Part shown: one piece after another, positions 5,702 through 61,567 of the stretch
Position numbering within the stretch: the first letter of the stretch is position 1
How the letters are laid out: each line of letters starts with the position of its first letter
Notes under the pieces: model-generated
Told to the model about the DNA's origin: nothing
Seen by the model: the letters and a program-made list of their open reading frames with translations, nothing else
The model's database searches: none
Made by a program: the position numbers and the translations under genes
Assembly (NCBI GenBank): GCA_017613355.1
Contig: JAGAEA010000022.1
Coordinates: 6,209 to 70,208, forward strand
DNA: 64,000 bases
Source: Clostridia bacterium
Lineage (GTDB): Bacteria; Bacillota; Clostridia; Oscillospirales; CAG-272
Direction of reading: 5' to 3'

Positions 5702-5768
5702 AACCCGTCATGTTTTTGACCGACGTTGGATATACTATCCCCGAAAGTCCTCGGAAAGGAGGTCTCCC

Positions 5769-6305: not shown

Positions 6306-6359
6306 ATTCATAAAAATACCGATTTTCAAATGTTTTTAGACCAAAAACAAAGATTTCTA

Positions 6360-6388
6360 TTGACACGGAAAGCGAAATCTGCTATAAT
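6360..6388 (+). promoter_or_regulatory. sigmaA promoter of the glm operon
   Basis: TTGACA-N17-TATAAT, perfect consensus with TG extension. Confidence 0.85.
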
Positions 6389-6491
6389 GATAAATGTTGA
6401 AGGTTCAACCGCACGGGTTTGGAAACTTTTCCAAGCCCGTATGTTATGCAATGGATGCTTTCATAAAAAACCGAGGGAGATTTTATCCGCT

Positions 6492-39165: not shown

Positions 39166-40173
39166 TCAGGAATTGAAGATCAGTTCGTCAAAAGAACAGC
39201 CGCTCGCGCTTTTCACGATCCCGTATGCGGTCAGTAAAACCAACCGATAGAGCCGTTCACGGTCAATGCCGACACAGTTCGGGATCGATTTGAGCAGTTT
39301 TTCGGCAGACGGATGAAACGAACCGGACGTCAGAAAGATGCCGCGCGATCCGTTTTTGACGTTGACCGCACCCCAGAACTCGCGGATCTCTTTTTCGGTG
39401 GTTTGCGTGTTTTCCCTGCATTTTGTCTGGATCATCAGATGTTCCACAAAGCCGAGATCGTCAACGGTCACCATTTCAATATCAACGCCGCCGTCCATAC
39501 TCCCGCCGGTCACCTCGCAGGAAGAAACCGCGCGTCCCGTCATTTGATAATACTTTTCCAATAGGTTGGCGCAATAACGTTCAAAGAATGCGCCGCCTTT
39601 GAGGTGGATCCGCTCAAAGAACGCCTTTTGAAATTCCGCCTCTGGTCGGAACTCCTTCCAGACCGCGACCGAATCGGCTTCTTTCGGGAGAGAATACAGA
39701 TCCCCTTCCAGTTTCACTTTCTGTTCGGAGAGCATTTGGGTCAACAGTTGTCCGGCGATCCCTTTCAGTTCGTTATCATCCTTCAACGACTTTGTTTGAA
39801 CCGTTCCGAAGTGATTTTGCAACGCGGAATACAAGTCCTTCTTTTTCATCGGATTTCGTCCGAGTAAACGAAGGATCTCTTTTTTATATTGTTGCGTTCC
39901 CACAACAATCAATTTTTCTTTGGTCAGAAAATATTCGTCGTTTTGCTTGGCAACGTCGCCGGACGCGACCAGATCATTGAGCGCCGTTCCGATGTAACTG
40001 CGAATGAGACCATTTTTCGAGTTTGGACTTTTATTTGCCAGTTCCTTTTCGGAAAGGCCGTAAAGTTTTGCTGTCCCATCCAAGATCCGGGCGCGTGTGG
40101 CTTTCCCTTCCTGATCGATAAACGCGGTCAACTTCTCCACGACCGACTGTTTTTCCTTCTCGCTGATTTTCAT
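39166..40173 (-). CDS. Mrr-like restriction endonuclease domain protein
   Basis: FERYCANLL...DGGVDI...IQTKC...EIREFWGAV...GIFLTSGSF catalytic pattern; N-terminal helical/wHTH-like segments. Confidence 0.8.
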   Translation of the reverse strand: MKISEKEKQSVVEKLTAFIDQEGKATRARILDGTAKLYGLSEKELANKSPNSKNGLIRSYIGTALNDLVASGDVAKQNDEYFLTKEKLIVVGTQQYKKEILRLLGRNPMKKKDLYSALQNHFGTVQTKSLKDDNELKGIAGQLLTQMLSEQKVKLEGDLYSLPKEADSVAVWKEFRPEAEFQKAFFERIHLKGGAFFERYCANLLEKYYQMTGRAVSSCEVTGGSMDGGVDIEMVTVDDLGFVEHLMIQTKCRENTQTTEKEIREFWGAVNVKNGSRGIFLTSGSFHPSAEKLLKSIPNCVGIDRERLYRLVLLTAYGIVKSASGCSFDELIFNS

Positions 40174-40191: not shown

Positions 40192-41364
40192 TCAGTTTTC
40201 TTTTCTCCAAACCATCTTATTGACAACGCCCACGTAGGACTGGATGATCTTGACTACCTTCGAGGATACGTTCTCCTCGATATAGTCCGGCACGGGGATG
40301 CCGTAGTCGCCGTTGCGGTTCATCTCCACGGCGGTATCCACCGATTGGATCAAACCCCTCTCGTCAATGCCGGAGAGGATGAAACAAGCCTTGTCCAGCG
40401 CTTCGGGGCGCTCGGTGGACGTGCGGATACAGACCGCCGGGAACGGTTTGCCGATGCTCGTGAAGAAACTGCTCTCCTCGGGGAGCGTTCCGCTGTCGGA
40501 CACCACGCAAAAAGCGTTCATTTGCAGGCAGTTGTAGTCGTGGAACCCCAAAGGTTCATGTTGGATCACGCGTTTGTCAAGTTGGAAACCGCTCGCTTCG
40601 AGGCGCTTGCGGCTGCGCGGATGGCAGGAATAGAGGATGGGAAGGTCGTACTTCTCCGCCATCTTGTTAATCGCCGTGAACAGGCTGACAAAGTTCTTTT
40701 CGGTGTCAATGTTCTCCTCGCGGTGGGCGGAGAGCAGGATGTACTTCCCTTTTTTCAGTCCCAAACGCTTGTGGATGTCGCTTGCCTCGATCTCGGCAAG
40801 GTTGTTGCGCAAAACTTCTGCCATCGGGCTACCCGTTACATAGGTCCGCTCCTTCGGCAGACCGCATTCGGCCAGATAGCGGCGGGCGTGTTCGGAATAC
40901 GCCATGTTGACGTCGCTGATGATGTCCACGATCCGGCGGTTGGTTTCCTCGGGCAGGCACTCGTCCTTGCAGCGGTTTCCCGCTTCCATGTGGAAGATCG
41001 GAATATGCAGCCGCTTTGCGCCGATGACCGACAGACAGGAGTTCGTGTCACCCAGAACGAGGACGGCGTCCGGCTTGATCTCTGCCATCAACTTGTAGGA
41101 CTTGGAAATAATGTTGCCGCAAGTTTCGCCCAGGTCGGCGCCGACCGCATCCAGATAGACTTCGGGATCGGCAAGTTTCAGATCCTTGAAGAACACACCG
41201 TTGAGGTTGTAGTCATAGTTCTGACCGGTGTGGGCAAGGATCGTATCAAAGTAGGTGCGGCACTTTGTGATCACCGCCGCGAGCCGGATGATCTCCGGCC
41301 GTGTGCCGACGATGATGAGCAGTTTCAATTTGCCGTTTTCTTTCCACTTCACGTTTTCAAACAT
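40192..41364 (-). CDS. fnlC: UDP-N-acetylhexosamine 2-epimerase (FnlC/CapG/WbjD-like)
   Basis: VGTRPEIIRL, HTGQNYD, HMEAGNRC, PEETNR, SDSGT. Confidence 0.9.
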   Translation of the reverse strand: MFENVKWKENGKLKLLIIVGTRPEIIRLAAVITKCRTYFDTILAHTGQNYDYNLNGVFFKDLKLADPEVYLDAVGADLGETCGNIISKSYKLMAEIKPDAVLVLGDTNSCLSVIGAKRLHIPIFHMEAGNRCKDECLPEETNRRIVDIISDVNMAYSEHARRYLAECGLPKERTYVTGSPMAEVLRNNLAEIEASDIHKRLGLKKGKYILLSAHREENIDTEKNFVSLFTAINKMAEKYDLPILYSCHPRSRKRLEASGFQLDKRVIQHEPLGFHDYNCLQMNAFCVVSDSGTLPEESSFFTSIGKPFPAVCIRTSTERPEALDKACFILSGIDERGLIQSVDTAVEMNRNGDYGIPVPDYIEENVSSKVVKIIQSYVGVVNKMVWRKEN

Positions 41365-41365
41365 T

Positions 41366-42574
41366 TCATTTCTCCTCGGCAAGGCGGTCCTTGATATACT
41401 GCAAGGACGCGATTTTGGCTTTGGTTTCTTCCAAATTCAGGCGGCGGGTGTTATTCGAGTTGAATTCGGTCAGCGTATTCCGTTTTTCGTCGCCTTCCTT
41501 GAAATATTTATCGTAGTTCAAACCACGGTTGTCCGCCGGAACACGATAGAAATTGCCCATGTCGATGGCTTTGGCGCACTCCTCATTCGTCAAGAGCGTT
41601 TCATACATTTTCTCACCGTGGCGGATCCCGATGACCTTGATGTCCTCTTTCTTGCCGCCGAATAATTCGCAAACGGCTTCCGCCTGGGTCTGAATGGTAC
41701 AGGCAGGCGCTTTCTGGATCAGAAGGTCGCCGTTTTCTCCGTGTTCAAAAGCAAACAGAACGAGATCGACTGCTTCGTCAAGCGACATGATGAAACGGGT
41801 CATGGAAGGCTCGGTGAGAGTGATGGGATTTCCCGCCCGGATCTGGTCGATCCAAAGCGGAATGACAGACCCACGCGAACACATGACGTTGCCGTAACGG
41901 GTGCAGCAGATCCGGGTGTTGCCGCTGTTCCTGGATTTCGCAATGGCAACCTTTTCTTCGATTGCTTTCGTGATTCCCATCGCGTTGATCGGGTATGCGG
42001 CTTTATCGGTCGATAAGCAAATTACGCACTTTACGCCTTCTTCAATCGCGGCGGTCAAGATGTTGTCCGTTCCAATGATATTGGTTTTCACGGCTTCCAT
42101 CGGGAAGAATTCGCAGGAAGGAACCTGCTTCAACGCGGCAGCGTGGAAGATATAGTCCACACCTTTCATAACGCTGCGGCAGGACTCCAAAGAGCGAACG
42201 TCACCGATGTAGAATTTGATTTTTTGGAAATGCTCCGGGTATTTCGCCTGGTATTCGTGGCGCATATCATCCTGCTTCTTTTCGTCCCGCGAGAAAATGC
42301 GGATCTCACCGATGTCGGTCGTCAGAAAGCGGTTGAGAACGGCGTTTCCGAAAGATCCGGTGCCGCCGGTGATCAGCAACACCTTCCCTTTCAAGATGTT
42401 GGTGTCGTTGTCTGCGTATTCTTTCAGGAGTTCCTTGATTCTTTGAAGTTTGAGCTGATCGGCAAGGTCTTCATCACTTTCATAGGATACGAAGGAACGA
42501 AGCGAGGTCTTTGTGATCTCAGCAGCTTCCTTTTGCGTCAGATTGCACATTTTCCTGAGTTCTTTTAAGGTCAT
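41366..42574 (-). CDS. fnlA: XRE-HTH fused UDP-GlcNAc 4,6-dehydratase/epimerase (FnlA/CapE/WbjB-like)
   Basis: N-terminal LKELRKMCNLTQKEAAEITKTSLRSFVSYE HTH, then ITGGTGSFG, SRDEKKQDDMR, ALKQVPSCEFFP, RYGNVMCSRGS. Confidence 0.9.
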   Translation of the reverse strand: MTLKELRKMCNLTQKEAAEITKTSLRSFVSYESDEDLADQLKLQRIKELLKEYADNDTNILKGKVLLITGGTGSFGNAVLNRFLTTDIGEIRIFSRDEKKQDDMRHEYQAKYPEHFQKIKFYIGDVRSLESCRSVMKGVDYIFHAAALKQVPSCEFFPMEAVKTNIIGTDNILTAAIEEGVKCVICLSTDKAAYPINAMGITKAIEEKVAIAKSRNSGNTRICCTRYGNVMCSRGSVIPLWIDQIRAGNPITLTEPSMTRFIMSLDEAVDLVLFAFEHGENGDLLIQKAPACTIQTQAEAVCELFGGKKEDIKVIGIRHGEKMYETLLTNEECAKAIDMGNFYRVPADNRGLNYDKYFKEGDEKRNTLTEFNSNNTRRLNLEETKAKIASLQYIKDRLAEEK

Positions 42575-42797
42575 AACAAAATGCCTCCATAATATCTTAC
42601 AGAGGCATTATATCACAAATGTGCAAATTTTGCAAGTGCTTTGCTGTTTTTTTATCTGCTTTTTTCACTAATTTCTAAAAAAAGCCACCTCTGCCAGATT
42701 GTATGCATTAATGAAATCATCGAGATCTATAGGGCAGCAGGTTATCAGATTTTCATATCCAACGATAACGTCAATAATTACCACCAGGATACACAAC

Positions 42798-43862
42798 CTA
42801 GTGAATCCAATCACTCAAATCAATCTTTAATGGAGTTTTGTTCTTTAGGTGAATAGCGCCAATCGCAATGCCAATTGAACTTAGGCTTATAGAAGATGCT
42901 CCTTTATTCCACATATCTGAAATAGGTTTTAAATCTGGATATTTATCAATTAAGTGTTCTGCGGCTTTCTTTTGTTCGACACAGTGTTCCTTATAAAAAG
43001 AAATAATCCTATTTTTAACTGGTTCTGTTATATCAGTTCTAGCATTGACTTGTTTCAAAAACTCCGAATAACTATTTGCTTTGAATGTAAATGTATCCGA
43101 CCCATCAAAAGCAAAAACCTCAGGAAACCATTCATATAAACTCTTTCCATTAATCTGTTCCATTTTGAATAAGTTTGAAGAAAAAGGTATATAAAAGGCT
43201 GAAGTATATTTGTTCCACAAGACATCACACAAAGGATTTGACATAACGCTTTTAATTGAACATCTTGTGAAATCTAAATGGCCAAGGTCTAAATCATTTA
43301 TTGAACTAACATTTTGACATAGTGGCAAAGCAAACAAAACCAGTATTTGATGAAGCCCGGAAAGAAACCTGGCGCCAGATACACCAACGTGGCCCATAAA
43401 GAATCTTAGAGCTAAAATATCCAATTGCTTATCAAGAAGAATGGGTGCTGTTTTTATAGCTTCACTCAATACTATTTGTCCTATTGTTGCTTCTTTGCAA
43501 TTTACTCTTTCTGCAATCAATTCACCTAAGATATCTAAAAGCGACACACTTCCCGTCTTTATATAACCTTTTTCAGCTTCGACCAAATCAAATTGCATAG
43601 ATGGAGAAGATAGAGCTTCTTGTACTTTTTCTATTTTAGTGTCAAGTTGGTTTAGTTTATTGAATACAGATACGACAAACTCACCATCACGTTCAAGAGC
43701 AGTTTCCAAAGCCTTATTCTTATATTTTTCTAATTCACATCTAACAACTTCTTCGATATATGGTCTTAAACCTTCAAGAGTCAAAAGACCAACATTGATT
43801 GTGCCTGCATTTTCAGTGACTGCAACTCCGTTATTGTTTTCTATTTCACTTTTGTTGGACAT
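42798..43862 (-). CDS. LPO_1073/Vpar_1526-like protein with an N-terminal amyloid-like motif
   Basis: Pattern ALETALER...PSMQFDL...LDILGELIAER...QIVLSEAIKTAP...IGIAIG...LSDWI resembles that family (from recall); AT-rich; GAAGGTGA RBS. Confidence 0.65.
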   Translation of the reverse strand: MSNKSEIENNNGVAVTENAGTINVGLLTLEGLRPYIEEVVRCELEKYKNKALETALERDGEFVVSVFNKLNQLDTKIEKVQEALSSPSMQFDLVEAEKGYIKTGSVSLLDILGELIAERVNCKEATIGQIVLSEAIKTAPILLDKQLDILALRFFMGHVGVSGARFLSGLHQILVLFALPLCQNVSSINDLDLGHLDFTRCSIKSVMSNPLCDVLWNKYTSAFYIPFSSNLFKMEQINGKSLYEWFPEVFAFDGSDTFTFKANSYSEFLKQVNARTDITEPVKNRIISFYKEHCVEQKKAAEHLIDKYPDLKPISDMWNKGASSISLSSIGIAIGAIHLKNKTPLKIDLSDWIH

Positions 43863-44037
43863 GCATTTCACCTTCATTCACTCCAACTGCGACACCAGAG
43901 TTATCTTTTATTTCCATATGAGACTTAATAAACTGGTCACATTTCTTTTTTGTTTTAAAGCTGAAGGCAAAAGATAGAATTGCCACCAATGTACTTACAC
44001 CGGCTATAATGATTGATATTATTTCATAAACTGTCAT
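43846..44037 (-). CDS. 63-aa single-TM peptide with a C-terminal amyloid-like motif
   Basis: AAGGAGGAG RBS; MTVYEIISIIIAGVSTLVAILSFAFSFKTKKK...EIKDNSGVAVGVNEGEMHVQQK; overlaps the next gene by 17 nt. Confidence 0.75.
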   Translation of the reverse strand: MTVYEIISIIIAGVSTLVAILSFAFSFKTKKKCDQFIKSHMEIKDNSGVAVGVNEGEMHVQQK

Positions 44038-44065
44038 TCTTATCTCCTCCTTCATTAGATTTCAA

Positions 44066-44240
44066 AACCACACCACTTCACAGCTATCGGCTTGCTATGG
44101 CCTGAAGTGCTTTCTGGTTGTTCTTCCTTGCTTGCCGTTGATACCTAACCACTCACCAGGTTCCGATGAGGTTGCTAGGCATTTCCATCTTTTCAGCAAA
44201 ACCGCAGTTCAAAACCCGAGTCCGCTGATGCTCCTTCTTC
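44066..44240. mobile_element. Structured non-coding element, possible IS200/IS605-type end remnant
   Basis: Higher-GC stretch in AT-rich context with nested stems (cacttca...tgaagtg; cagc...gctg); no transposase adjacent; IS link is from recall only. Confidence 0.4.
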
Positions 44241-44256
44241 GATTGGGGGCGGGGTG

Positions 44257-45282
44257 TTATTCTTTGCTATATCCGTAAGGATTTTTAACTTGCCAATTCC
44301 AAGAGTCCCTAGCGCAGTCCTCGTATGTATATTCAGCTTTCCAGCCTAAAATCTTGTTGGCTTTTTCAACCGATGCAAAAGATAGAGGAACATCACCAGG
44401 TCTGATATCCGTAATTTGGTAAGGAATCTTCTTCCCCGACACTTTTTCGAAAGCAGCGACCAATTGCAAAACGGTCGTTCCCTTTCCTGTGCCCAAATTG
44501 AAGACATCAAATTTCACATCTGTGTTATTCAAATAATTTAGCGCGGCAAGATGGCCTTTTGCGAGATCAACAACGTGAATATAATCCCTTAATCCGGTTC
44601 CATCGACAGTATCGTATGAATTGCCATAGACCTTCAAATAAGGAAGTTGCCCAAGCAAAACTTTCGTGATGTAAGGCACCAAGTTATTAGGAATGGATTG
44701 TCCATCATCCTCGCCAATCAAACCAGATGGATGTGCGCCAACCAGGTTGAAGTATCTAAGCGCAATAAACTTGAAATCCTTTCTTTGGCTAGCGAAATCC
44801 TTCAAAAGCAATTCAATAAGATATTTGCTCAAGCCATAAGGAGAGCAAACCTTACCAACCAAATCTATTTCATAATCAGGCACTTCTTCTGGGGTACCAT
44901 AAACCGTAGCACTGCTGGAAAACACTAATTTATAAACATTATGCTTTTCCATAGCGTTCAGAAGATTAAACGTGGAAATGATGTTTGTATTCAAGTATTT
45001 GCCAGGTTCGAGTATAGATTCAGCACCGCTCTTTAAACCTGCGAAATGGATGATTGAATCTATTTTATTCTCACTGAAAACTCTTTCAACAAGTTCAACA
45101 TCCAACAAGTCACCCTTATAAAACTTTGGCGTTTTGCCTGTGATTGCAGTAATTCTTTCAAGAACCTCAATCCTTGAATTGCACAGATTGTCAACGATGA
45201 CGACATCCTCGCCAACATTTAATAATTCTACCACAGTGTGGGAACCGATAAACCCAGTTCCGCCTGTAACTAATACGCTCAT
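44257..45282 (-). CDS. galE: UDP-glucose 4-epimerase
   Basis: VTGGTGFIGSHT, IHFAGLK, FSSSATVYG, YGLSK, LRYFN, RDYIHVVDLA. Confidence 0.93.
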   Translation of the reverse strand: MSVLVTGGTGFIGSHTVVELLNVGEDVVIVDNLCNSRIEVLERITAITGKTPKFYKGDLLDVELVERVFSENKIDSIIHFAGLKSGAESILEPGKYLNTNIISTFNLLNAMEKHNVYKLVFSSSATVYGTPEEVPDYEIDLVGKVCSPYGLSKYLIELLLKDFASQRKDFKFIALRYFNLVGAHPSGLIGEDDGQSIPNNLVPYITKVLLGQLPYLKVYGNSYDTVDGTGLRDYIHVVDLAKGHLAALNYLNNTDVKFDVFNLGTGKGTTVLQLVAAFEKVSGKKIPYQITDIRPGDVPLSFASVEKANKILGWKAEYTYEDCARDSWNWQVKNPYGYSKE

Positions 45283-45362
45283 TTTATATTCCTCCTGGTA
45301 TCACAAAACATTATTTGTTAAAACATCGACGATTGTTGGTTTTAAGCAACCATCAAATCTAA

Positions 45363-46172
45363 TTATCTATCAATATATAAATTCCCAGAGCCGCCCGTAA
45401 CATAAAATGTCTCTCCAACAACCAAATCAGAAATACTTGAGCATAATAAAACCGCCCAATTCGCAATTTCTTGTGCGGTGGCCATTCTTTTAGAAGGATT
45501 CTCCTCGCAAAAAATGTCATTATTATCTCTTCCGAGCATTTTTGTAGCAACTGGTCCAGGGCCTAATCCGTTCACAACAATTCCATAAGGAATTAATCTT
45601 TGTGCAGAACCTTTAATCAAACTCTCTACAGCATTCTTCGATATTTCATATGGTGTAACTCCATTTTTTAGCGCACTAGCAGAACTTATATTCAATATGT
45701 GGCCTTTTATTGCATGAGATTTCATTAAATTCCCTACACATTGATTAACGAAAAACATCCCTTTGAGGTTCACAGAGATTACGTCATCGAAATCCTTTTC
45801 GGTAATTTCAAAAAAATTAGATGGGCCGTGTATGCCCGCTGCATATACAACTATATCGATATTATAATCATGCGATGAATAAATGTGATCTAGTGAATGA
45901 AGCATAGATGTGATATGGTTGCAATCAATCTCATAAAACTCACAATTGTTCAATTGGGCATAAGCCTTTTCCAATTTTTCCTTATTCGTCCCAGTAATCA
46001 TTATATTACAATCCGATTTTTGAAAAGCTTTTGCAATTTCAAATCCAATGCCACCACATCCACCAATTATTAATGCTCGATGCCCAGAAAGAAGATTAGT
46101 CATTAATACCGGAGTATTAATTGCTCTAAGCTCGACTTTTTTGAATCTTTTTAAAAACGACTTAATGCTCAT
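45363..46172 (-). CDS. SDR family oxidoreductase
   Basis: GGCGGIG, NISS, YEISK, VNGLGPG. Confidence 0.88.
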   Translation of the reverse strand: MSIKSFLKRFKKVELRAINTPVLMTNLLSGHRALIIGGCGGIGFEIAKAFQKSDCNIMITGTNKEKLEKAYAQLNNCEFYEIDCNHITSMLHSLDHIYSSHDYNIDIVVYAAGIHGPSNFFEITEKDFDDVISVNLKGMFFVNQCVGNLMKSHAIKGHILNISSASALKNGVTPYEISKNAVESLIKGSAQRLIPYGIVVNGLGPGPVATKMLGRDNNDIFCEENPSKRMATAQEIANWAVLLCSSISDLVVGETFYVTGGSGNLYIDR

Positions 46173-47920
46173 TTTTTAAACCCCTTCAAAAAAGATAGTA
46201 TTTTTTTAATTCTTTCTTTTTGTTTAGAACTAAATAGTTTAGAGAGCGAGTTCACAACAGGATTACCAACTTGATTTCTATTTTGATTGTAGAATTTATT
46301 AGTGTTGTTTGCTTCGAATTCCATATCGGTAAAGACTTCTAAAAACATCGGTTTGTCACTTTCGTGTGAAAACTTTTCTATAGCGTTATCAAACTCTTCT
46401 TTGCAAGTGGCAAAATAATAATCATAGCCCAATGAAACAACCCACCCAGCCGCAATCTTTGAATGCTTTGCTGAAATATAATCATTTATTTCAGGAATTT
46501 TCTCTTTGCCAACAAAAAAATGGAATTCCCCACCGCCTCCATTATTAATTAATATAATTCTCACATTCTTTGAAATGTTCCTTAAACCGGCGGCATTCAT
46601 ATCGTAAAAAAAGCTCAAATCACCAATCAACAAATACGCCAATTCGTTTGTTGATGCCGCCTGGCCAGCAAAAGTCGAAAGGCATCCATCTATTCCTAAA
46701 GCGCCAACGTTGCTATATGCCATAACGTTATTATTTAAGTTGAAGAACTGCATGACTCTCGTACTATTTAGAATAGCAGTATGCAAAACAGAATTCTCAG
46801 GAACGATTTGCGATAGTCCTTTTGCAACATAAAGATTTGAAAACTCAAATTCTGGCAGAATAAACTTGTCTATTTGCGATTTCCAGAGGTTGTAATAAAG
46901 CATATCGTTTTTGTCGTTCTTTTCTAGGGACATTAGACCATCGAAGAATTCAGCAACGCTGCACTCATAAATGCGCGTTAAACATTTATATGCATCACGA
47001 ACATTTCCATTTTCCGATATTAGCCAGTTACAAATACTTTTATACCCATTTCTCAAAAATGGTTTTAATCCATACGCTGCTAAGTTGTTGCCAATAGAAA
47101 TCACTAGATCCGGAAGAAGGTTTGAAGACAAACGCGTTTCAGTAAGTGGATAGGTATTTATGCATCCTTCACAATTTATATTTGACAAAGTCTCGATTGA
47201 AAAAAAGCATTTATATCTGTTAAAAAACTTTTCAAAATTAGATATCATCTTTTTGTCAAAGTTAACATTTTGACCAACAACAACCATAATTCTTTTATAA
47301 CCAACTAAGTTTTCATGAATTGAGTTAAAGTCAATTTTTGAGAACGAAATTAGATCAATTTTTCTTTCAGTAGGCAATTTTTCGCAATCGTAAATATCGT
47401 ATCTTTGTGTAATTGGAACATTTATGTGACACGGGCCACTACCGTGATGATCGAGTTCAAGAAGGGCCTCGTTAATAAGTCTATTACATAACCACTCATC
47501 CTCTTCATCTTTTATAACAGGCAGAGATACAGATTTCTTAACAACGCCATCAAACACTTTTGTTTGTTCAATTTTTTGTGTTTCTAATTGATTTTGATAA
47601 TATGGATTTTTATCGCATGTTATAGCAAGAACGGGCCTACTTTGGTACCATGCCTCTGTAATACCTGGCAAATAATTACAAACAGCAGTGCCAGATGTAC
47701 AAATGCATGCAACCACACATTGTTTCTGCAGCGAAACACCTAGAGCGAAGTATGCAGCGCTTCTTTCATCAACTACTGAATAACAGTTAAAAAAGGGATC
47801 TTTTTCTATAGAATGAATTAAGGGAATATCACTTCCACCTGGAGAAATGACTATTTCTTTAATGTCATTTTGTTTCAACAAAGATACCAAAATTTGAATG
47901 CTCCTAATATTGCTATACAT
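46169..47920 (-). CDS. MenD-like thiamine diphosphate-dependent enzyme
   Basis: ISPGGSD, VDERSAAYFALG, CTSGTA, GIDG, GDLSFFYD...INNGGG ThDP motif. Confidence 0.85.
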   Translation of the reverse strand: MYSNIRSIQILVSLLKQNDIKEIVISPGGSDIPLIHSIEKDPFFNCYSVVDERSAAYFALGVSLQKQCVVACICTSGTAVCNYLPGITEAWYQSRPVLAITCDKNPYYQNQLETQKIEQTKVFDGVVKKSVSLPVIKDEEDEWLCNRLINEALLELDHHGSGPCHINVPITQRYDIYDCEKLPTERKIDLISFSKIDFNSIHENLVGYKRIMVVVGQNVNFDKKMISNFEKFFNRYKCFFSIETLSNINCEGCINTYPLTETRLSSNLLPDLVISIGNNLAAYGLKPFLRNGYKSICNWLISENGNVRDAYKCLTRIYECSVAEFFDGLMSLEKNDKNDMLYYNLWKSQIDKFILPEFEFSNLYVAKGLSQIVPENSVLHTAILNSTRVMQFFNLNNNVMAYSNVGALGIDGCLSTFAGQAASTNELAYLLIGDLSFFYDMNAAGLRNISKNVRIILINNGGGGEFHFFVGKEKIPEINDYISAKHSKIAAGWVVSLGYDYYFATCKEEFDNAIEKFSHESDKPMFLEVFTDMEFEANNTNKFYNQNRNQVGNPVVNSLSKLFSSKQKERIKKILSFLKGFKK

Positions 47921-47921
47921 A

Positions 47922-49457
47922 CTAATTCTTCTCCTTTTTCCTAAAGAACCTCTTGAATATATTTACAAAGAACAAATAATCATCGTTTTTTATGTTAAAT
48001 AAAGTAAATAAAACGATAAAAACTGTCAAAATTATCACTGCTTTGATGCAAAAATATAACAAACCATTTGGGATAAAACTAATTGCTAATAAAGAAAGAG
48101 AAAAACCTAAGACGGAAATCATGAAATGTTTTAATTGTTTGAACCAATATAGGCATACTTTTTTATTAAAGCACTTTTTGAATAGTATTATGGGCTCGAT
48201 TATGAAGCTTGTCATTAAGAGACTAACGGCAGTAGCCAAAAGAATACCAAAAGTACCCCATAATATTCCTAATACGATGGATAAAAATAGGTTAAGGAGC
48301 GCTCTAAATATAATCAGCAATTGAACTTCTTTAAATAAGCCGTTAGCTTCTCTATACATCCATATTGGCGTTATAGCGGTTGTAATATAGAAATTAATTG
48401 AAATCATCCAAACCGTATAATTATCTAAAACATAAACACTCCCTAGCCAATAAGAAATAAGATTGTTGAACAATAATATAAATCCTGTTCCACCAACGGA
48501 GCCTATAAAATGGTAAAAGAGCAGAAAACTGTTGAACAATTTGTATTGTTTTTCAGCATCCCCTTTAGCATTTAAATTACCTATACCAGATACTAATGAC
48601 ACAGTAATAATAACAAGAAACGAGTTTACGGCGCTAATTATTGATAAATAATTCGAGTACAACCCCACTGCGGCTGTGCTCACAAGTACAGATATTAGAA
48701 TATTATCTGTATTATTAATTGCAACCGTACATATTTTGTAGATAAAAGTGGCTGATATCCTTTTATAAATTGGTTTTTTATCAAATGAAACGGTTTCTTG
48801 CTCTATCAGAACATCTTTATGTAATTTGTTACAAGCAAAATTAAGTAATAGATTTCCAGCAATAGTAACAATGACGATAGAATAAAGATAGAATAAATAG
48901 TTTCTCGTCAGTGTCAAAACAACAATACAAACGATTTGCAAAGCCAATTTTGTTATCAGTGCTATTATTCTAGACACCCTTTGTTGCTGATAGGCTGACA
49001 GCAAAGCGTTCTTGTGAGCAACAAAATAACTAAGGACAGTGTTCAACACAAAAATAAGAAAATAATACTGTAATTCCCCTATGGCAATATTGCTATTAAC
49101 TAAATATTTTAAAAAAGGCAGTAATGCAACGCCAATCAGAAAAATTATAATGGCTAAAAATATATATATTTTCTTGAAAAATTTTAGAAGGGAATGAATT
49201 AATGGCTTATTATCATCGGCAACCGGTTTATATAACGAAAATAACACCGCGGTATCTAGCCCCAGTTCCGCTAGAGATAATACGGTTAAAAGATTACCAA
49301 ATAGACCATCAATGCCAAGATAGTCTATGCTAAGATACCTTAGAAAAATCTTCCTACCGATAAATGTTGTAATCAGAATTCCTATTTGGCAAAAATATCC
49401 GATCACAATATTTAAGACAGCATTCTTAGAACGCGAATCATTTTTATTACTTAACAT
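47922..49457 (-). CDS. Wzx-type oligosaccharide flippase
   Basis: About 12-14 hydrophobic segments; LSLAELG, NTDNILIS, VGLYSNY. Confidence 0.85.
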   Translation of the reverse strand: MLSNKNDSRSKNAVLNIVIGYFCQIGILITTFIGRKIFLRYLSIDYLGIDGLFGNLLTVLSLAELGLDTAVLFSLYKPVADDNKPLIHSLLKFFKKIYIFLAIIIFLIGVALLPFLKYLVNSNIAIGELQYYFLIFVLNTVLSYFVAHKNALLSAYQQQRVSRIIALITKLALQIVCIVVLTLTRNYLFYLYSIVIVTIAGNLLLNFACNKLHKDVLIEQETVSFDKKPIYKRISATFIYKICTVAINNTDNILISVLVSTAAVGLYSNYLSIISAVNSFLVIITVSLVSGIGNLNAKGDAEKQYKLFNSFLLFYHFIGSVGGTGFILLFNNLISYWLGSVYVLDNYTVWMISINFYITTAITPIWMYREANGLFKEVQLLIIFRALLNLFLSIVLGILWGTFGILLATAVSLLMTSFIIEPIILFKKCFNKKVCLYWFKQLKHFMISVLGFSLSLLAISFIPNGLLYFCIKAVIILTVFIVLFTLFNIKNDDYLFFVNIFKRFFRKKEKN

Positions 49458-50565
49458 TGTTAGCTAAACCTTTATTAAAATAATCCGCTAATTTGTCGTA
49501 ATATTTTTTTTCAAAATAATTATCAATAGCGCAACTGTAGCTGTTGTAATAAAGTTTATGAATTAACTCAAAAGCAGAGTTTAAATCTTCTGCAACAAAC
49601 ACATATTCATCTAGCACGCCTTTAAACCAGTCAGCGCCAGTAATAACTTTATGATCTGTTGTTTTTAATATAACGACCGGGGTATTTGCAGCCAAAGCGA
49701 AGATTGTACCGTGGTAACGATCGGTAACAATAAGTTTATAATTGGAATAATTTGAAATTTCATCTAGAATATGCTGTTCGGCATTGAAATTAATACGAGC
49801 TATTCTTTTAGTAGTATCAGTTCTTTCAATTCTATCAGTGATGCTTTTGCATTTAGAGATTAATAATTCGAGTTCGCTATCAGGATAGAATTTTTCTGTG
49901 TCATCTCTAAGGCAAAATAATATTCCTTCTCTTTTATTTGAAAACGTTAGGGTTCCAATAAGAGTAGTCACAATATCAGGAAACAACATAACATTAATAT
50001 CAGGAAACATTTCTAATGCAGTATGATAAGAAATACTATCTCTTGCTAAAAATAAGAGATTCTTATCGGCATTAAGAATTGAAGCAGTTAGCATTTTATT
50101 TTTTTCATTTTTAAAAAAAACGGTTTGTGGCATCATCAACTTTTTATTGTTGGGAAACTCCAAACAAATTGTTCTATGCATTAAATCAGCATACCCTCCT
50201 AAATCAGTTGTGGTATAACCACTTTGAAAAACAAAAAAATCATCATCTTTTATTAAATGTTTCAATTTTCTAATTATTGGAAACATAGTGTTAACGACAG
50301 CATTTGTTTCTATTTCAACGATTGGAATATTTATATAATGTTTTTTTAACCATTTTCTAATGCACACACCTTGAGCTTGGTCTCCTAAATTATTGTGTAC
50401 AGGAATGCCAAAATAAACTATTTTTTTTTCCTCGGAATCAATTCTCAAATGATTTAAATAATGCAAGGCTCTACAATATGTTTTAAAATTCCAATAAAGC
50501 TTTCTAATCCACAGTAACGGAAAGAAAAATTTTTTATTTTTTCTTATAAAATTTGATAAACTCAT
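49447..50565 (-). CDS. Polysaccharide pyruvyl transferase family protein
   Basis: NLGDQAQ, PQTV, ARD, PDIV, TDRYHG motifs. Confidence 0.8.
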   Translation of the reverse strand: MSLSNFIRKNKKFFFPLLWIRKLYWNFKTYCRALHYLNHLRIDSEEKKIVYFGIPVHNNLGDQAQGVCIRKWLKKHYINIPIVEIETNAVVNTMFPIIRKLKHLIKDDDFFVFQSGYTTTDLGGYADLMHRTICLEFPNNKKLMMPQTVFFKNEKNKMLTASILNADKNLLFLARDSISYHTALEMFPDINVMLFPDIVTTLIGTLTFSNKREGILFCLRDDTEKFYPDSELELLISKCKSITDRIERTDTTKRIARINFNAEQHILDEISNYSNYKLIVTDRYHGTIFALAANTPVVILKTTDHKVITGADWFKGVLDEYVFVAEDLNSAFELIHKLYYNSYSCAIDNYFEKKYYDKLADYFNKGLANNVK

Positions 50566-51742
50566 TAGGCAATATCTCCTCATATGCTTTCAAATAGTCG
50601 TTTGCCATTTCAAACGGGCGTTTCACATGATAATCAACTTTTTTTCTTCCTTTGTTTGCCCACTTTTTGAGCGCATCAGCAAACATATCTAAATCATAAG
50701 GTTCTACACATTCTCCCATATCAAAAGGGATAGTCTCTTTAATACCTCCCGAATTAAAACCAACAATATTCAAGCCACATGACGAAGCTTCTAAACACAC
50801 TGTTGGATAATTCTCTCTGTAACTAGTCATCGCAAGACAATCAGCATTTGAATAGTAATTTGCTAATTCTTCTTTACTATCAATATGACCAACAAAGTAT
50901 AAATTTGGAATATTAATTTTCGCATACGACCCAACAACAACAAAATTATAATCAGGCATTCTCTTAGCCAATTCTATAATAAATCTTCCGCCTTTAATTG
51001 GGTGATCAAAATTAGGAGTAACGTGAAGAATTATTTTTTTGTTGCAATCTAAGTTAAATCTTTCTCTTATAATGCTACTTTCAATATATGAGAATGAAGA
51101 AACATCAATACCGTTCTTAATAGTTATACATTTGTGGTTTTTAAAAATTAGGGACTCTTCACATCTATTTGTAATCCATTTGGAACATCCAACAACTAAC
51201 AACGAATCAAAGCCCTTGATGGATTGGCGCATTTTTTCAAAGCAATACTTTGCGTCATCGCGAAAAACCTGAGAAATCAGCCCCTTTATTACGGGACAAT
51301 GATTGCACCCTGTTTTCCATTTATTACAATCCATTGCATGTTCACATCCGGCAGTGTGCATATTTTCTGCATGAATTGTAATAATAGTTTTTATCTTATT
51401 CTTCTTAAGATAATTGATTAGTCTGTATGCATTTATATAATGAGCATTCAAACAATGTAAATGAACGATGTCTGGCGAGACTTTTTTGATCATTTTAATG
51501 GCGTTTTTAGTGGAAAGAGGTGAAAAAGCCAAATCAACCCCAAATAAAAGAGATAAAAAACTATGTATTTTTGCCTCTAGCTCTGAACTGATTTTGTAAA
51601 CATTAGCCTCTTTTATTTTTTTGCCGCGTCCATATAAGACATATGAGGAGTAGCCCTTGCTAATGTAACAGTTATGCAAATCCGATACAATTTTGCCAGT
51701 GCTTCCTGTTTTATATACACTATTAATCTGCAGTATTTTCAT
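50534..51742 (-). CDS. GT4 glycosyltransferase (WcaC-like)
   Basis: MKILQINSV...GSTGKI, PDIVHLH, KGG, ENYPTVCLEA. Confidence 0.85.
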   Translation of the reverse strand: MKILQINSVYKTGSTGKIVSDLHNCYISKGYSSYVLYGRGKKIKEANVYKISSELEAKIHSFLSLLFGVDLAFSPLSTKNAIKMIKKVSPDIVHLHCLNAHYINAYRLINYLKKNKIKTIITIHAENMHTAGCEHAMDCNKWKTGCNHCPVIKGLISQVFRDDAKYCFEKMRQSIKGFDSLLVVGCSKWITNRCEESLIFKNHKCITIKNGIDVSSFSYIESSIIRERFNLDCNKKIILHVTPNFDHPIKGGRFIIELAKRMPDYNFVVVGSYAKINIPNLYFVGHIDSKEELANYYSNADCLAMTSYRENYPTVCLEASSCGLNIVGFNSGGIKETIPFDMGECVEPYDLDMFADALKKWANKGRKKVDYHVKRPFEMANDYLKAYEEILPNEFIKFYKKK

Positions 51743-52013
51743 ATAATCTATAATTAATCATGGTGAATTTTATATTGCTAAACAAAAATCCACTTATTCC
51801 TTTCATATCCTTCTAAAGCCCTGCTAATGCCTTGCGCCTAAAGATAACAGTACATCTATTAGCAAATATACATAACAAAATATACAAGGTGCTATAGTTC
51901 CCTATATATTTTTTCTGCATATAAAATAAAAAGCTAATAGCCTTTTCTCCAAGGTTCTTATAAATAATATTTCAAAATAACCGTCTTCGACTCAAACCGA
52001 AAAAGTATTTCAT

Positions 52014-53123
52014 TTATATTTCTTTCCAAAATGGAACGTATGGGATTGTATCCAAAAACCCAGAGCCATTTTTGAAGGAAGAATAAACTGCATATACGAA
52101 ATAAATAGTAAAAAAAACAGATAATACTAATTCGCCAATTTTTGCCATTTGATAATTAACTTTACTAGCATTTTTCACGGCATTACCAACCGCTAATGGA
52201 ATTAATAAAATAAAATAATAATTCATTCTCATAGCCAAATCATTTACAAATGCAAAAGATTGTAATACAACTGCAAAAACCAAAATATTTCTTAGTGCAT
52301 ATGCATCATTGTCCATTGTTTTTTCGTCTTCTACAAGAAAACAAAAAGTAGCAAATAATGCAAATAGAACAAAGCTCATGAATGCGCCTGTTTCGGTAGC
52401 TTGAACGCCATACTTATCGTTAAAACTCCCAGCAAGGGAAGACAAAAAATTAAAGATGGGTTTATTAAAAATAAAAACAGTCATAATTGAGGAAATAATC
52501 CACCACAAATCTTTTGTCTTAAATCTAAAGAAAAACAAAGGAAACAATAAGAAAACCATAAAGCCAGTATGATGAGTAAAGGTTGCTAATATTGAAAGCA
52601 ATATAAACAATATATATTTTTTATCTTTTAAAGTTTGATATGCAAGTAATCCTAGAGCCATCGCAAGTCCTTGCCTGATCCCAGAAAAAAGCATTACATA
52701 TGTAGACATATTAACGAAAATTGCTATTTTTAGATAACCATGCGTTTTGTCTTTGCAATACACATACATAATTGGAATGACCGATAAAATAGCTGTAATT
52801 GAAACAAAAAGTTGATAATTGTTTGATATATGATTATAAAAAAACCAACAATAAAAACGGTAAACGATTTCAGACCACGATGAAAAGACAGATCCCAAAG
52901 AAGAATTGCCAAATTTTATAAATAAATGTTCGTAATTTACCAAATCTCTTCCTAAATATTTATTTCTTAACGACAAAACGAGAAGGAATAAAATAAAAAA
53001 TAGTGGTAGAATAGCGCGATTAAATTTTATTGATGTTTTTTTTAATCTTAAACTATTATAATTGAAAACAGAAAGTATTTGAAATGATAAAGGTATTAAC
53101 AAAAGCGATATGTATGGCAACAT
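52014..53123 (-). CDS. EpsG family polysaccharide polymerase
   Basis: Multi-TM; LR...GRDLVNY, SGIRQGLA, HHTG, RMNYYF, PY near the C-terminus. Confidence 0.82.
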   Translation of the reverse strand: MLPYISLLLIPLSFQILSVFNYNSLRLKKTSIKFNRAILPLFFILFLLVLSLRNKYLGRDLVNYEHLFIKFGNSSLGSVFSSWSEIVYRFYCWFFYNHISNNYQLFVSITAILSVIPIMYVYCKDKTHGYLKIAIFVNMSTYVMLFSGIRQGLAMALGLLAYQTLKDKKYILFILLSILATFTHHTGFMVFLLFPLFFFRFKTKDLWWIISSIMTVFIFNKPIFNFLSSLAGSFNDKYGVQATETGAFMSFVLFALFATFCFLVEDEKTMDNDAYALRNILVFAVVLQSFAFVNDLAMRMNYYFILLIPLAVGNAVKNASKVNYQMAKIGELVLSVFFTIYFVYAVYSSFKNGSGFLDTIPYVPFWKEI

Positions 53124-53430
53124 AGTTTTTCATTTCTCCTTTTTCTATCTTAAAACGAGCCTTCTAAATATATTAATATATTGAAGCTATGAGATGTTAG
53201 ATATTGACCATTGTTTAATAATTAATGTAATAGAGTGGATACATAAAAACGCCATAATGGATGATTAATAAAAAGAAAAAGGTAATACGGACTTAATTTT
53301 TAAACAATCAATGTAATGAGTATAAGAAATACATGACAATTATTTTACATATAAAAAAATACTTAGGACCGAGCCAAAAGAATAAGCAATTGTTAGCAAG
53401 CTTTCATAAGTGGATAATCACATTTGAACA

Positions 53431-54366
53431 TCACTTCGTTTTGATATGCCTGAATATTCTATAATACATTTTTCTTATCGTAGGTCTTATTTTTCCATAT
53501 GAAGACAACATAGTGATTCTAAACCTTTGAAGTAATGAAAATTTGCCTTTTTTTCGATATAATTCAAGTGCTTCAGTACAGTTATTTTTTGCAAAATACA
53601 AAGTCATGTAATAAATATAGTTTTCTCTGCGCGACGAAACCAATTCTAACGGATTAAACATCAATTTCCCAAATATTGAAGAGTCTTTAATAAACACATC
53701 TTTTGCTGTTTGAGTACCTTGTTTTGAGTGTATCCTACTTTGGACACATTCGTCTTGAACATATAAAACGTTATATTCTTTAAGCAACACTCTCATCCAC
53801 ATTAAGAAATCTTGAGCAAACTTTAATTGCTCGTCAAAGAAGCCAGCATCAATAAATGCTCTTTTTGGTATCAATAAAGCGCAGCCACTAAAGCAACTAC
53901 TTCTAATTAAAGCAAGTAGAGCTCTATTCCAAGGATTTATGCCACTATTTAAAAATTTGTTTTTCTTACTATGTTTGATAACGTTGTTATCTTTATCTAT
54001 TTGAGCTGAATTACAATAGCAAATCAAATCCTCCTCTTCACAAGCAGAAACAGCACTAATTTGCGCTTCTATTTTATTAGGAGTGTATCTGTCATCATGA
54101 GAAAGCCATGAAAAATATTCTCCTCGCATTTCCTTTATCCCGAGGTTCAAGGCAGATGACACCCCGCCATTTTCTTTTTTAAAATAGCGGATTTGGTTGC
54201 CGTATGACATTGCTATTTCGTCTGTGTCATCAGCTGAACCATCATTTACAACGATAATTTCAACGTTTTCGTATGTTTGAGCAAGAGCGCTATCAATTGC
54301 TTCTCTCATATAATTTGATCCGTTGTAAACTGGAATAATTATTGAAACTAAAGGTTTTTTATCCAT
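53431..54366 (-). CDS. GT2 glycosyltransferase
   Basis: VSIIIPVYN, VNDGS, NGGVSSALN, WLSHDD. Confidence 0.9.
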   Translation of the reverse strand: MDKKPLVSIIIPVYNGSNYMREAIDSALAQTYENVEIIVVNDGSADDTDEIAMSYGNQIRYFKKENGGVSSALNLGIKEMRGEYFSWLSHDDRYTPNKIEAQISAVSACEEEDLICYCNSAQIDKDNNVIKHSKKNKFLNSGINPWNRALLALIRSSCFSGCALLIPKRAFIDAGFFDEQLKFAQDFLMWMRVLLKEYNVLYVQDECVQSRIHSKQGTQTAKDVFIKDSSIFGKLMFNPLELVSSRRENYIYYMTLYFAKNNCTEALELYRKKGKFSLLQRFRITMLSSYGKIRPTIRKMYYRIFRHIKTK

Positions 54367-55459
54367 TTTTATCACCACAAATGTTTTTATAAATATCGAG
54401 CATTTTATTAGCTACCAAAGATAGTTCAAATTGTTTCAGCCTACGATAATTGTCATCGGAATTGTTAAAACCACCAATACATTGTTTAATTACCTCGGCA
54501 ACCGATGAAGTTATGTGTGGATCAAACAATCCCTCACGAACCAAATCTGAACAACCTCTTATATTGCTACAAACCACCGTCGTTTTGGCTGCCACCGCCT
54601 CCATAACAGAAACAGGCAAGCCTTCTCTGAAAGAGGGGTGGACAAACAAATCCGCCGCCTTATATAATTCTGCAACATCTTTTCTATAGCCAAGCAAATG
54701 TAGATTTACTTTTAGTTCCTTAGCAAGTTTTTCAAGATTCTCTTTCTGATCTCCAACTCCTGCAATCATGTAATGAATATTTGAATCGTTTAATTCGGCT
54801 ATCGCTCTAATAACTATTTGATGGTTTTTATTTTGATTCAATTCACCAACAGAAAAAATTAAATATGCGTCTTTTGGAATACCAAGATCCTCTCTTTTTT
54901 TATCTCTATCGACTACTGTATTAGCAAATTTCTTTGTATCCATGCCTACGCCAGGAACATATTCGATACGTTTTGCCTTCATTTTCTTTTTGGCTAGATC
55001 ATAATCCTCTTTATTAATTGTAATTAAAACATCTGTCCATCTTGAGCATAGTTTTTCGATAGGATAATAAATAATCCAATTTTTCTTTGGAGCGCCTTTA
55101 TAGAAATGGAAGCCATGAGCAGTGTATATAACTTTAAGCCCTTGCTTCTTTCTTAGTTTCCTACACGCAATGCGTGTTGACATACCAGCCAATGGCGTAT
55201 GACAATGAACAATATCATATTCCTTAGCAAGATTCCTTATTTGCTTTATAGCCTTAATATTGTCGAAACTAAGTGGGGAGCGAGAACAAGAAATATCAAA
55301 TATTTTACATCCCCATTTTGAATAATAATCCGGGACCTTCGAAGATGATTGATTAGCAGCAAAATCAACAACGTGCCCATCGTCAATAAGTTGTCTAACC
55401 AAGTCTTTAAAAAACGGCATAAAGCCACCAACAGTAGCCACATATAATATTTTCATCAT
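54359..55459 (-). CDS. GT4 glycosyltransferase (EpsD-like)
   Basis: HCHTP, YTAHGFHF, VGELNQNKN, REGLPVSVMEA. Confidence 0.9.
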   Translation of the reverse strand: MMKILYVATVGGFMPFFKDLVRQLIDDGHVVDFAANQSSSKVPDYYSKWGCKIFDISCSRSPLSFDNIKAIKQIRNLAKEYDIVHCHTPLAGMSTRIACRKLRKKQGLKVIYTAHGFHFYKGAPKKNWIIYYPIEKLCSRWTDVLITINKEDYDLAKKKMKAKRIEYVPGVGMDTKKFANTVVDRDKKREDLGIPKDAYLIFSVGELNQNKNHQIVIRAIAELNDSNIHYMIAGVGDQKENLEKLAKELKVNLHLLGYRKDVAELYKAADLFVHPSFREGLPVSVMEAVAAKTTVVCSNIRGCSDLVREGLFDPHITSSVAEVIKQCIGGFNNSDDNYRRLKQFELSLVANKMLDIYKNICGDKNG

Positions 55460-58503: not shown

Positions 58504-58556
58504 TTGTTCAACTCCTTTTTAATAATTTAGCAAGCAACACAACACGTGAACAGCCA

Positions 58557-60592: not shown

Positions 60593-60763
60593 CCTGCAGC
60601 GTTCTCCTTTTGGGATTACTCTTTTCCATTCTCTCAATTCATCAAAAAAGCGGCAAAGACCGATTGTTCCTGTCAAAACTGCGTTGAAATGGTGTAAAAG
60701 TGCTTTTCGTTCAAATCAGACATCGGGGATTTCCGCAAAGTATAGAATTGATAATTATTCCTA

Positions 60764-60808
60764 TATATTATACACTTATATTATACACTCCAAGCAAGTA
60801 AAAGTCAA
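60764..60808 (-). promoter_or_regulatory. Capsule-locus promoter with tandemly duplicated -10 region
   Basis: TTGACT-N17-TATAAT; the 13-mer tatattatacact occurs twice in tandem (60764-60789). Confidence 0.7.
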
Positions 60809-61512: not shown

Positions 61513-61549
61513 AAAAAACCTGCTTTTGTTTGGTAAAAGCAGGTTTTTT
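61513..61549. terminator. Intrinsic terminator after the MgtC-like gene
   Basis: aaaaaacctgctttt...aaaagcaggtttttt. Confidence 0.8.
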
Positions 61550-61567
61550 GTTTGTAAACGTCCGACG

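Follow-up and report, generated by a model that had tools for sequence, protein, structure and literature searches.

A membrane peptide and a PF28206 protein with a shared, co-evolving motif as a candidate bacterial defence module

Within a polysaccharide locus of a Clostridia bacterium (Oscillospirales, CAG-272) lie two overlapping genes, one for a 63-amino-acid single-pass membrane peptide and one for a protein of the LPO_1073/Vpar_1526 family (NF045477 / PF28206). The peptide ends in a motif that resembles the one with which its neighbor begins. What keeps these two motifs alike, and what might such a pair do? The question was addressed in a window of 64,000 nucleotides (assembly GCA_017613355.1, contig JAGAEA010000022.1, positions 6,209 to 70,208 of the forward strand) and in homologous loci from other genomes and metagenomes. 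"The window" refers to this whole stretch, and coordinates below are its own unless a locus is named. The motifs of cognate partners were found to be homologous and co-evolving, with saturated synonymous sites. The pair may be an abortive-infection-type defence module of two translationally coupled proteins, coupled through the shared motif, a reading that we consider about evenly balanced between right and wrong.

The small open reading frame (ORF) occupies 43846..44037 on the minus strand, with its stop codon at 43846-43848. The open frame as a whole runs over 43846-44055, and the ATG at 44037 is the likely start; a GGAGG ribosome-binding site (44046..44050, minus strand) is read from the sequence at a spacing of 8 nucleotides (nt) from it. 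The encoded peptide consists of a short acidic N-terminal flank, a transmembrane (TM) helix, a basic patch, the 19-amino-acid motif and a terminal QQK. It has a single strong hydrophobic segment (KD18 2.55), with a net charge of -1 ahead of the segment and +3 across the 15 residues after it, and the positive-inside rule applied to these flanking charges places the tail in the cytoplasm. Gene calls in other assemblies include homologues of the peptide (P0159, 78% identity; P0160, 68%), and orthologous ORFs are present in loci L003-L008.

The large gene (42798..43862, minus strand) encodes a protein of 354 amino acids starting MSNKS. Its ORF in full spans 42798-43877 (minus strand, 359 amino acids), with an alternative start at 43877; the ATG at 43862 is the likely start because AAGGTG lies 6 nt upstream of it, the proteins P0003 and P0004 start with MSNK, and the Atlas record starts there. 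The peptide ORF and the large gene overlap by 17 nt in different frames. The large protein is without a TM segment (hydrophobicity maximum 1.58), and this, together with the predicted topology of the peptide, would fit a coupling of the motifs in the cytoplasm. The NF045477 profile matched residues 41-358 of the 359-amino-acid ORF (42804..43757, minus strand) with 164.9 bits against a cut-off of 45 (E=2.6e-48), and PF28206 was annotated in precomputed records on seven of seven close homologues and on the nearest Atlas clusters. Scans of the window's two proteins with Pfam and PADLOC gave neither a name, no Pfam family matched the peptide above threshold, and its Atlas matches were generic single helices. 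Family-profile scans of the large protein found no nucleoside triphosphatase (NTPase) or repeat domain. A profile search of PDB sequences returned weak coiled-coil matches to proteasome ATPase (best E=0.004), which were judged spurious, and an Rfam scan of 41000-46000 found no RNA element. Each of two RNA-library runs contained a single short contig from the large gene (43497-43745; 43369-43574), with no contig covering the peptide; they were not used as expression evidence because contigs cannot show transcription.

The C-terminal motif of the peptide, EIKDNSGVAVGVNEGEMHV (43858..43914, minus strand), and the N-terminal motif of the large protein, EIENNNGVAVTENAGTINV (43791..43847, minus strand), were compared pairwise. 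Without gaps, 10 of the 19 residues (53%) and 35 of the 57 bases are identical, and codons differ at six of the ten identical residues. The N-terminal motif lies outside the family model, since the NF045477 match spans only residues 41-358, and no Pfam motif family appeared among the matches up to E=1 for either protein. The likeness could in principle be an artefact, whether of chance, of a recent local duplication or of one gene broken by a frameshift, as the motif is of low complexity and the ORFs overlap. When the peptide was shuffled and compared with the whole large protein, however, none of 300 shuffles reached 10/19, the best giving 8. A preliminary description of the locus had claimed the peptide with its ribosome-binding site, TM helix, basic patch and terminal motif, the family assignment, a sensor that is not a NOD-like receptor (NLR), and two motifs alike at 10 of 19 positions with differing synonymous codons. 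All of this was upheld by the reading of both ORFs, the NF045477 score, the family-profile scans and the shuffles.

The family comprises 1038 representatives of 50%-identity clusters (E<=1e-3), and nearly all of their N-termini carry an N/Q/G-rich stretch. The commonest pattern is Q-x-x-G-D-x-S-x-N-x-Q followed by alternating hydrophobic residues, and among the closer relatives of the window protein it is N-N-G-x-A-V-x-x-N-x-G-x-I-x-V. Six of six loci from species genomes (metagenome-assembled genomes (MAGs) of gut Bacillota, at 68% and ~30% identity) have the pair, that is, an upstream, overlapping small TM ORF on the same strand whose tail resembles the N-terminus of its own partner. Further main-clade loci were drawn from IMG/VR viral contigs (12) and from metagenomes (80). 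Among 101 loci in total, 13 with <300 nt of upstream sequence were excluded and 88 were scored, a pair being counted where a TM segment was present in a distinct ORF upstream and its tail aligned to the cognate head with a local BLOSUM62 score of at least 24. The pair was present in 80 of the 88, a recurrence that again speaks against an artefact. The eight exceptions comprise one locus with a weaker TM score, two with a frameshift-broken peptide, two with in-frame TM fusions, one with an HNH fusion and two with nothing. The pair was also found in genome locus L112 and in a P2-like prophage of E. coli (proteins WP_000490525 and WP_000687980). A plasmid search returned two E. coli records only. 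No close relatives were found among metagenome contigs searched with a single protein, among viral contigs searched with alignments A2 and A5, or among phages searched with P0046.

Two observations concern the peptides of individual loci. A frameshift separates the TM part of the peptide ORF from the motif part in L082 and L084, putting them in different frames, and the near-identical L083 is intact; the split is either effector decay or an assembly error. The peptides of L005 (3781-3993) and L008 (3748-3960) contain two apparent pseudo-repeats (…SG.VSVSNSG… / …G.ISGV.SGEIN.) against one in the partner, and in this resemble the two-repeat effectors of HET-s-type systems.

Co-evolution of the motifs was assessed in 52 dereplicated pairs sharing <75% identity over tail plus head. 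Mean tail-versus-head scores were 50.2 for cognate and 37.1 for non-cognate combinations, and none of 10,000 permutations of partners reached the observed cognate sum. The signal was kept inside the main motif class (n=48) and when permutation was restricted by quartiles of GC content (0/10,000 each), and 42 of the 48 main-class cognate pairs scored z>3 against composition-preserving shuffles. The cognate head was ranked first for nine of the 52 tails and within the top three for 14. As divergence of the PF28206 body between loci rises, the cross-score falls from 50.4 through 43.4, 39.3, 37.8 and 30.7 to 21.6, which argues against an ancient duplication followed by independent drift, as that would give a flat line. 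A hidden Markov model (HMM) built from tails only detected 78 of 155 family proteins by their N-termini (E<=0.01) and none of 310 shuffled or reversed controls. In a column-wise comparison cognate identity was higher in 18 of 20 columns, a result that is illustrative only, the register having been chosen to maximise cognate identity.

A recent duplication or gene conversion is ruled out by the codons and by the absence of a DNA repeat. Among 547 residues identical between tail and head, 239 use the same codon against 258 expected from codon usage, and no DNA repeat was detected; the likeness is therefore kept by selection at the protein level. Locus L009, with nine of 11 codons the same, is a possible exception to the no-conversion pattern. 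It had been supposed in the preliminary description that a small upstream TM ORF would recur in homologues, with a motif co-varying with the N-terminal motif of the partner, and that the match was not just a recent local DNA duplication; the recurrence in scored loci and L112, the permutation, GC-controlled and divergence results, and the codon counts bear this out. A separate observation was made in P0160, the 62-amino-acid peptide homologue, which has '...GVAIRTNNG...' where others read GVAVGVN. At the matching position P0005, a PF28206 homologue at 61% identity, has '...GVLIRENKG...'. If the two are neighbors, the shared I-R would be a clean compensatory change.

The relative position of the two genes varies. 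Measured against the large gene, the peptide ORF occupies all three frames (35, 12 and 5 of 52), and the distance from its stop to the start of the large gene varies between -32 and +10 nt, the commonest values being -11, -8 and -4. Three relative frames and varied spacing indicate two proteins rather than a frameshifted single gene, and a fusion by frameshift or readthrough is ruled out on the same grounds; the spacing pattern looks like translational coupling, not programmed frameshifting. An artefactual origin of the shared motif, which we hold to be extremely improbable, is thus refuted by the shuffles, the family-wide recurrence, the variety of frames and the codon counts.

Genuine fusions exist alongside the split pairs. 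In-frame proteins with TM helix, two motifs and PF28206 domain were found in L030, P0031, P0125 and P0162, and single-motif fusions (TM helix, basic patch, motif, domain) in P0015, P0029, P0056, P0146 and others. Some members carry an HNH endonuclease at the N-terminus (PADLOC PDC-M68A, 1.8e-27, plus CBASS-type endonuclease effector models) and some a Schlafen AlbA_2 domain (3.2e-13). Defence sensors with their effectors are usually built from a constant domain and exchangeable N-terminal modules, and the constant C-terminal PF28206 domain with its exchangeable membrane or nuclease modules is as expected of a putative sensor with swappable effectors. A 283-amino-acid form was also seen in L010 (1450-2301), in which a hydrophobic N-terminus leads straight onto the domain without an N/Q/G motif.

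In the reading proposed here, the PF28206 domain would be a cytoplasmic sensor or regulator and the 63-amino-acid peptide its effector, made of a single membrane helix and a cytoplasmic tail with a ~20-amino-acid, N/G/V-rich, beta-prone motif, of which the sensor N-terminus would be a diverged copy. Signalling would pass from sensor to peptide. Once triggered, the sensor would self-associate, so that its N-terminal motifs form a beta-sheet nucleus; peptide tails would then join this nucleus by homotypic pairing, the motif mediating the binding, and in the strong form of the proposal the joining would be amyloid-like templating into a cross-beta structure. The clustered TM helices would then breach the membrane, and this damage would presumably serve phage defence. 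A broader claim is put forward tentatively, as possible but on balance doubtful. It holds jointly that PF28206 proteins with their mini-peptides make up a very large and hitherto unrecognised class of amyloid-like signalling defence in unicellular bacteria, plasmids and prophages; that the effector, one membrane helix and a 20-residue tag, would be the smallest known and the sensor fold new; and that cross-beta assembly of the tag would be the oligomerisation switch, with pair-specific co-evolution insulating co-resident systems. The tag would then be kept even in fused forms because its assembly is that switch.

The fused forms also suit a different arrangement, in which the two proteins form a constitutive hetero-complex. 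The peptide would be a detachable membrane anchor and the motifs a permanent intermolecular beta-hairpin or zipper, with no templating; the split form would equal the fused TM-motif-PF28206 protein, the switch would lie elsewhere, and a defence role might still hold. Fusions with one motif and with tandem motifs are as this arrangement predicts, translational coupling suits stoichiometric partners, and separate conserved signatures of tail and head, where they occur, are what two complementary halves of one structure would show. Yet motif length, pair identity and the split or all-in-one pattern are the same as in the experimentally shown amyloid-signalling pairs, as far as the published descriptions of these go, and motif composition is so in part. 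The HNH and Schlafen fusions moreover point to an N-terminal partner with a lethal effect, held off until triggered, and the apparent pseudo-repeats of the L005 and L008 peptides are those of HET-s-type effectors, as given in the text of the source preprint (bioRxiv 10.1101/2020.01.06.895854). A constitutive complex is accordingly considered unlikely, though it must be taken seriously.

The surroundings of the pair elsewhere bear on whether defence is its role. The distribution of the family is sparse, patchy and accessory. Above the family cut-off it occurred in one of 61 genomes (the window's own genome and 60 relatives, the sole match being the own genome), in six of 401 genomes of a phylum sample, and in two of 399 of the class sample on the Clostridia side. 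In E. coli the pair is present in seven of 5426 complete genomes and sits between the replication gene gpA and the portal gene gpQ, beside full-length PADLOC Hp1-Hp3; the gpA-gpQ interval is described as the P2 defence hotspot by Rousset et al. (PMC9122126). Other pairs adjoin an Old-family nuclease gene (L009) or AbiH and DpdB-like genes (L003, with an epimerase-like remnant just upstream), or lie beside ThsA (L017), Drt3b (L103) or TraG (L008), and in L005-L007 the pair lies between type II methyltransferase and MobA/MobL relaxase genes. Such defence-type contexts around homologous pairs (defence islands, prophage hotspots and mobile elements) agree with what the preliminary description had led one to expect. 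PDC-M43A, a component of a PADLOC candidate system, was matched by 16 of 25 main-clade partner peptides. PADLOC models run over 30 family members gave no consistent match, and a likeness to AbiLii in one of the 30 (E=0.0074) was rejected as noise.

Loci L004-L007 (about 2500-7200) hold nearly the same element, consisting of a type II methyltransferase-like gene, the pair and a MobA/MobL relaxase gene, in MAGs labelled Dialister, Catabacter, Ruminococcaceae and Lachnospiraceae. Such near-identity in different families suggests that a mobilisable element has spread between them recently. The PF28206 gene of L004 has an in-frame stop within its N-terminal motif.

Mobile settings of this kind would also suit an addiction module. 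The peptide could be a holin-like toxin and the PF28206 protein an antitoxin that uses the shared motif to sequester the toxin by its tail; were the antitoxin lost, the peptide would be free to self-assemble and kill, which would stabilise mobile elements or act as backup abortive infection (Abi). The toxin-first, overlapping two-gene layout fits such a toxin-antitoxin pair, as do its occurrence on a mobilisable element with MobA/MobL, beside TraG and in prophages, and a weak resemblance of the window peptide to Hol_Tox (PF16935; 14.7 bits, E=0.029). That score is nonetheless below the cut-off of 23.3 bits, a protein of 354 amino acids with many conserved positions is big for a purely sequestering antitoxin, and in-frame fusions of "toxin" to "antitoxin", together with the HNH and Schlafen fusions, fit a sensor and effector better. 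We regard a toxin-antitoxin function as improbable.

Several results weigh against a motif-driven defence switch, or against extending it to the window's own pair. Most fused forms retain a motif copy, placed between TM helix and domain, where it could as easily be a permanent linker or oligomerisation element as a switch. In the largest sub-clade, tail and head hold separate conserved signatures, with scores of 24-34 and cognate ranks of 31-40 of 52. Lysine is not depleted in the tails (10.8%), unlike in BASS motifs. The tail-only HMM misses the heads of the window's class, which gives only four tails, and comparative evidence for this motif class is pairwise, from four independent pairs (the window, L003, the L004-L007 element and L008). 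A divergent Veillonella-type branch (L011-L013) consists of proteins of 500-725 amino acids in which a long acidic linker accompanies a TM helix and the motif is absent; it has housekeeping-looking neighbors and warns that the PF28206 domain is not confined to defence. Among neighboring ORFs sampled at nine further loci, eight of 10 were without a defence match. PADLOC models did not match either of the window's proteins, and the window's own peptide did not match PDC-M43A. Evidence of transcription is negligible, both RNA-library contigs lying inside the large gene only.

The position of the window pair raises the further question of whether it belongs to the polysaccharide locus in function. 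A GalE-like epimerase gene lies upstream of the two-gene cassette, and FnlA-like, 2-epimerase and FnlB-like genes lie downstream. The cassette as a transferable unit, with a ~94-nt leader upstream of the peptide, was delimited to 42798..44131 (minus strand) by contigs of a DNA run from another metagenome (X4). These contigs match 42798-43637, 43613-43945 and 43916-44131 and continue into unlike sequence beyond 42798 and 44131, so the differing flanks indicate that the cassette is movable. The preliminary description had called it an AT-rich insert. The insertion is supported by the flanks of the X4 contigs, but compositional distinctness is not: at 34.7% GC the cassette equals the adjoining ~18 kb of the polysaccharide locus (34.8%; 51.7% on the other side), and composition therefore does not mark it as an insert.

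A non-defence role as a membrane accessory of polysaccharide or envelope biogenesis would make this position meaningful. The epimerase-like remnant just upstream of the L003 pair would agree with it, and the Veillonella-type relatives are membrane-anchored and conserved within the genus; Vpar_1526 itself appears in the membrane-fraction table of an outer-membrane proteome study of V. parvula (PMC5491611). Pairs elsewhere, however, lie in the P2 hotspot, beside Old, AbiH, ThsA or Drt3b, and on plasmid-like or conjugative elements rather than in sugar loci. The flanks of the cassette differ in the X4 metagenome, none of the 60 relatives searched has a family member above the cut-off, and the window's polysaccharide locus contains another insert, a type IV restriction-like gene. 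An envelope function is thus thought very unlikely.

Other features of the locus were noted. An imperfect 18-nt direct repeat (42634-42651 and 44105-44122, 78% identity) flanks the cassette, its upstream copy lying near the point at which the X4 contigs diverge; the repeat could be either the scar of an insertion or a coincidence. The restriction-like gene (39166-40173, minus strand) encodes a 335-amino-acid protein with an Mrr_cat domain (Pfam 2.2e-16; PADLOC mREase_IV 2.6e-12) and is wedged between the 2-epimerase and FnlB-like genes, a second non-sugar, defence-like insert in the polysaccharide locus. In the FnlA/CapD-like dehydratase (41366-42574, minus strand) the Polysacc_synt_2 match begins only at residue 66, and the first ~60 residues look like a helix-turn-helix extension, unusual for such an enzyme. 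Just upstream of this gene are a promoter-like TTGCAA-17-TATAAT with TG (42635-42607) and a 13-bp hairpin (42580-42609). Across 42600-62000, ~19 kb of the polysaccharide locus, GC content is 29-42% against 50-60% in most of the remaining window, and a separate 2-kb patch at 2001-4000 has 35% GC; both low-GC parts are probably horizontally acquired, serotype-specific parts.

If the proposed reading is true, bacteria would commonly use motif-templated, amyloid-like signalling in immunity, which would no longer be confined to fungi, filamentous bacteria and one E. coli system. The reading would give a function to a family that bears only placeholder names (LPO_1073/Vpar_1526, PF28206) and to hundreds of small ORFs, those checked here being mostly nameless. 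The pair of 63 and 354 amino acids would be a minimal, easily engineered one that shows how a 20-residue tag carries a death signal, and its natural co-variation would be a specificity code ready for testing. The homologue in the E. coli P2 hotspot would allow direct testing in a laboratory strain.

Known systems were compared by their published descriptions. The layout of an amyloid-signalling pair, with adjacent co-oriented genes and a motif at the effector C-terminus and the receptor N-terminus, is found in the window and in 80 of the 88 scored loci. Across the 52 pairs the motif core has a median length of 21 amino acids and a median identity of 0.50 (range 0.29-0.79). N, Q and G each make up 12-14% of the motif against 4-6% of the domain, L 1-4% against 12%, and P 0.3-0.4% against 3%; V and I are not enriched. 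In length, pair identity, richness in N, Q and G and poverty in L and P the tag resembles the bacterial amyloid signalling motifs reported by Dyrka et al. (bioRxiv 10.1101/2020.01.06.895854); in lysine, V and I it does not. All-in-one relatives are present as TM, HNH and Schlafen N-terminal fusions, most with a motif copy. The PF28206 protein is not an NLR, a feature that Bab/Agp shows not to be obligatory, and the window peptide has a TM helix, basic patch and motif in place of a helical domain of the HeLo/Bell type.

The fungal HET-S/NWD2 is a eukaryotic system with a HeLo domain, a NACHT-WD receptor and shown prion behaviour. Its logic, as described, resembles the one proposed here in that the N-terminal motif of a receptor templates the C-terminal motif of a membrane-targeting executioner. 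Holin-like or type I membrane toxins are similarly short, with a single TM segment followed by a basic patch, but unlike the window peptide they are without a C-terminal motif shared with a neighboring protein. PDC-M43A resembles the partner peptides in its N-terminal TM part, which is also matched by the fused P0015 (best E 3.8e-10), and these matches point to a membrane module shared with a defence-island candidate. The profile has 203 positions, however, of which the peptides match only the first ~50, and the partner components of PDC-M43 did not match the PF28206 protein.

The Bell/NLR pairs of filamentous bacteria (BASS1-10) are described with ~25-amino-acid motifs in which G, N and Q are conserved and P and L depleted, with an identity of 43-56% in tested pairs, with pseudo-repeats in some effectors and with all-in-one forms (bioRxiv 10.1101/2020.01.06.895854). 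Like the PF28206 pair, they are encoded by adjacent genes and have the motif at the effector C-terminus and the receptor N-terminus. Their receptors are NLRs (NOD plus repeats), whereas the PF28206 family is without an NTPase, and in the account given there they occur almost only in multicellular Actinobacteria and Cyanobacteria, whereas the PF28206 family ranges over gut Bacillota, prophages of E. coli and many bacteria from the environment. The all-in-one NLRs as described are also unlike the PF28206 fusions, which keep the motif between TM helix and domain.

A literature text search found no description of the pair, although it may figure without a name among the candidates in supplementary tables (e.g. 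PMC9122126, PMC13586616). A phage defence in which amyloid signalling works through a non-NLR sensor has already been published, in the preprint on Bab/Agp of E. coli ECOR25, an Abi defence against T5 with the motif BASS11 (bioRxiv 10.1101/2024.11.07.622273). LPO_1073 has 0 occurrences in that preprint, and neither the PF28206 family as such nor its size or minimal effector seems to have been described. Bab/Agp is the closest published system. According to the preprint text, it too consists of adjacent genes, one for a small effector that has a hydrophobic helix at its N-terminus and a ~20-amino-acid motif at its C-terminus, the other for a non-NLR sensor that starts with the same motif; it too lies in prophage defence hotspots, and further effector domains are found attached to its motif family. 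The motif family described here may differ from BASS11, and the motif persists in fused forms, unlike in Bab/Agp as there described. The Bab/Agp effector is a 109-amino-acid Bell-like helical domain where the PF28206 pair has no more than a TM helix (relatives have one or two), and its sensor, TPR-GreA/B-C-PIN with 1094 amino acids, is here replaced by a PF28206 protein of ~350.

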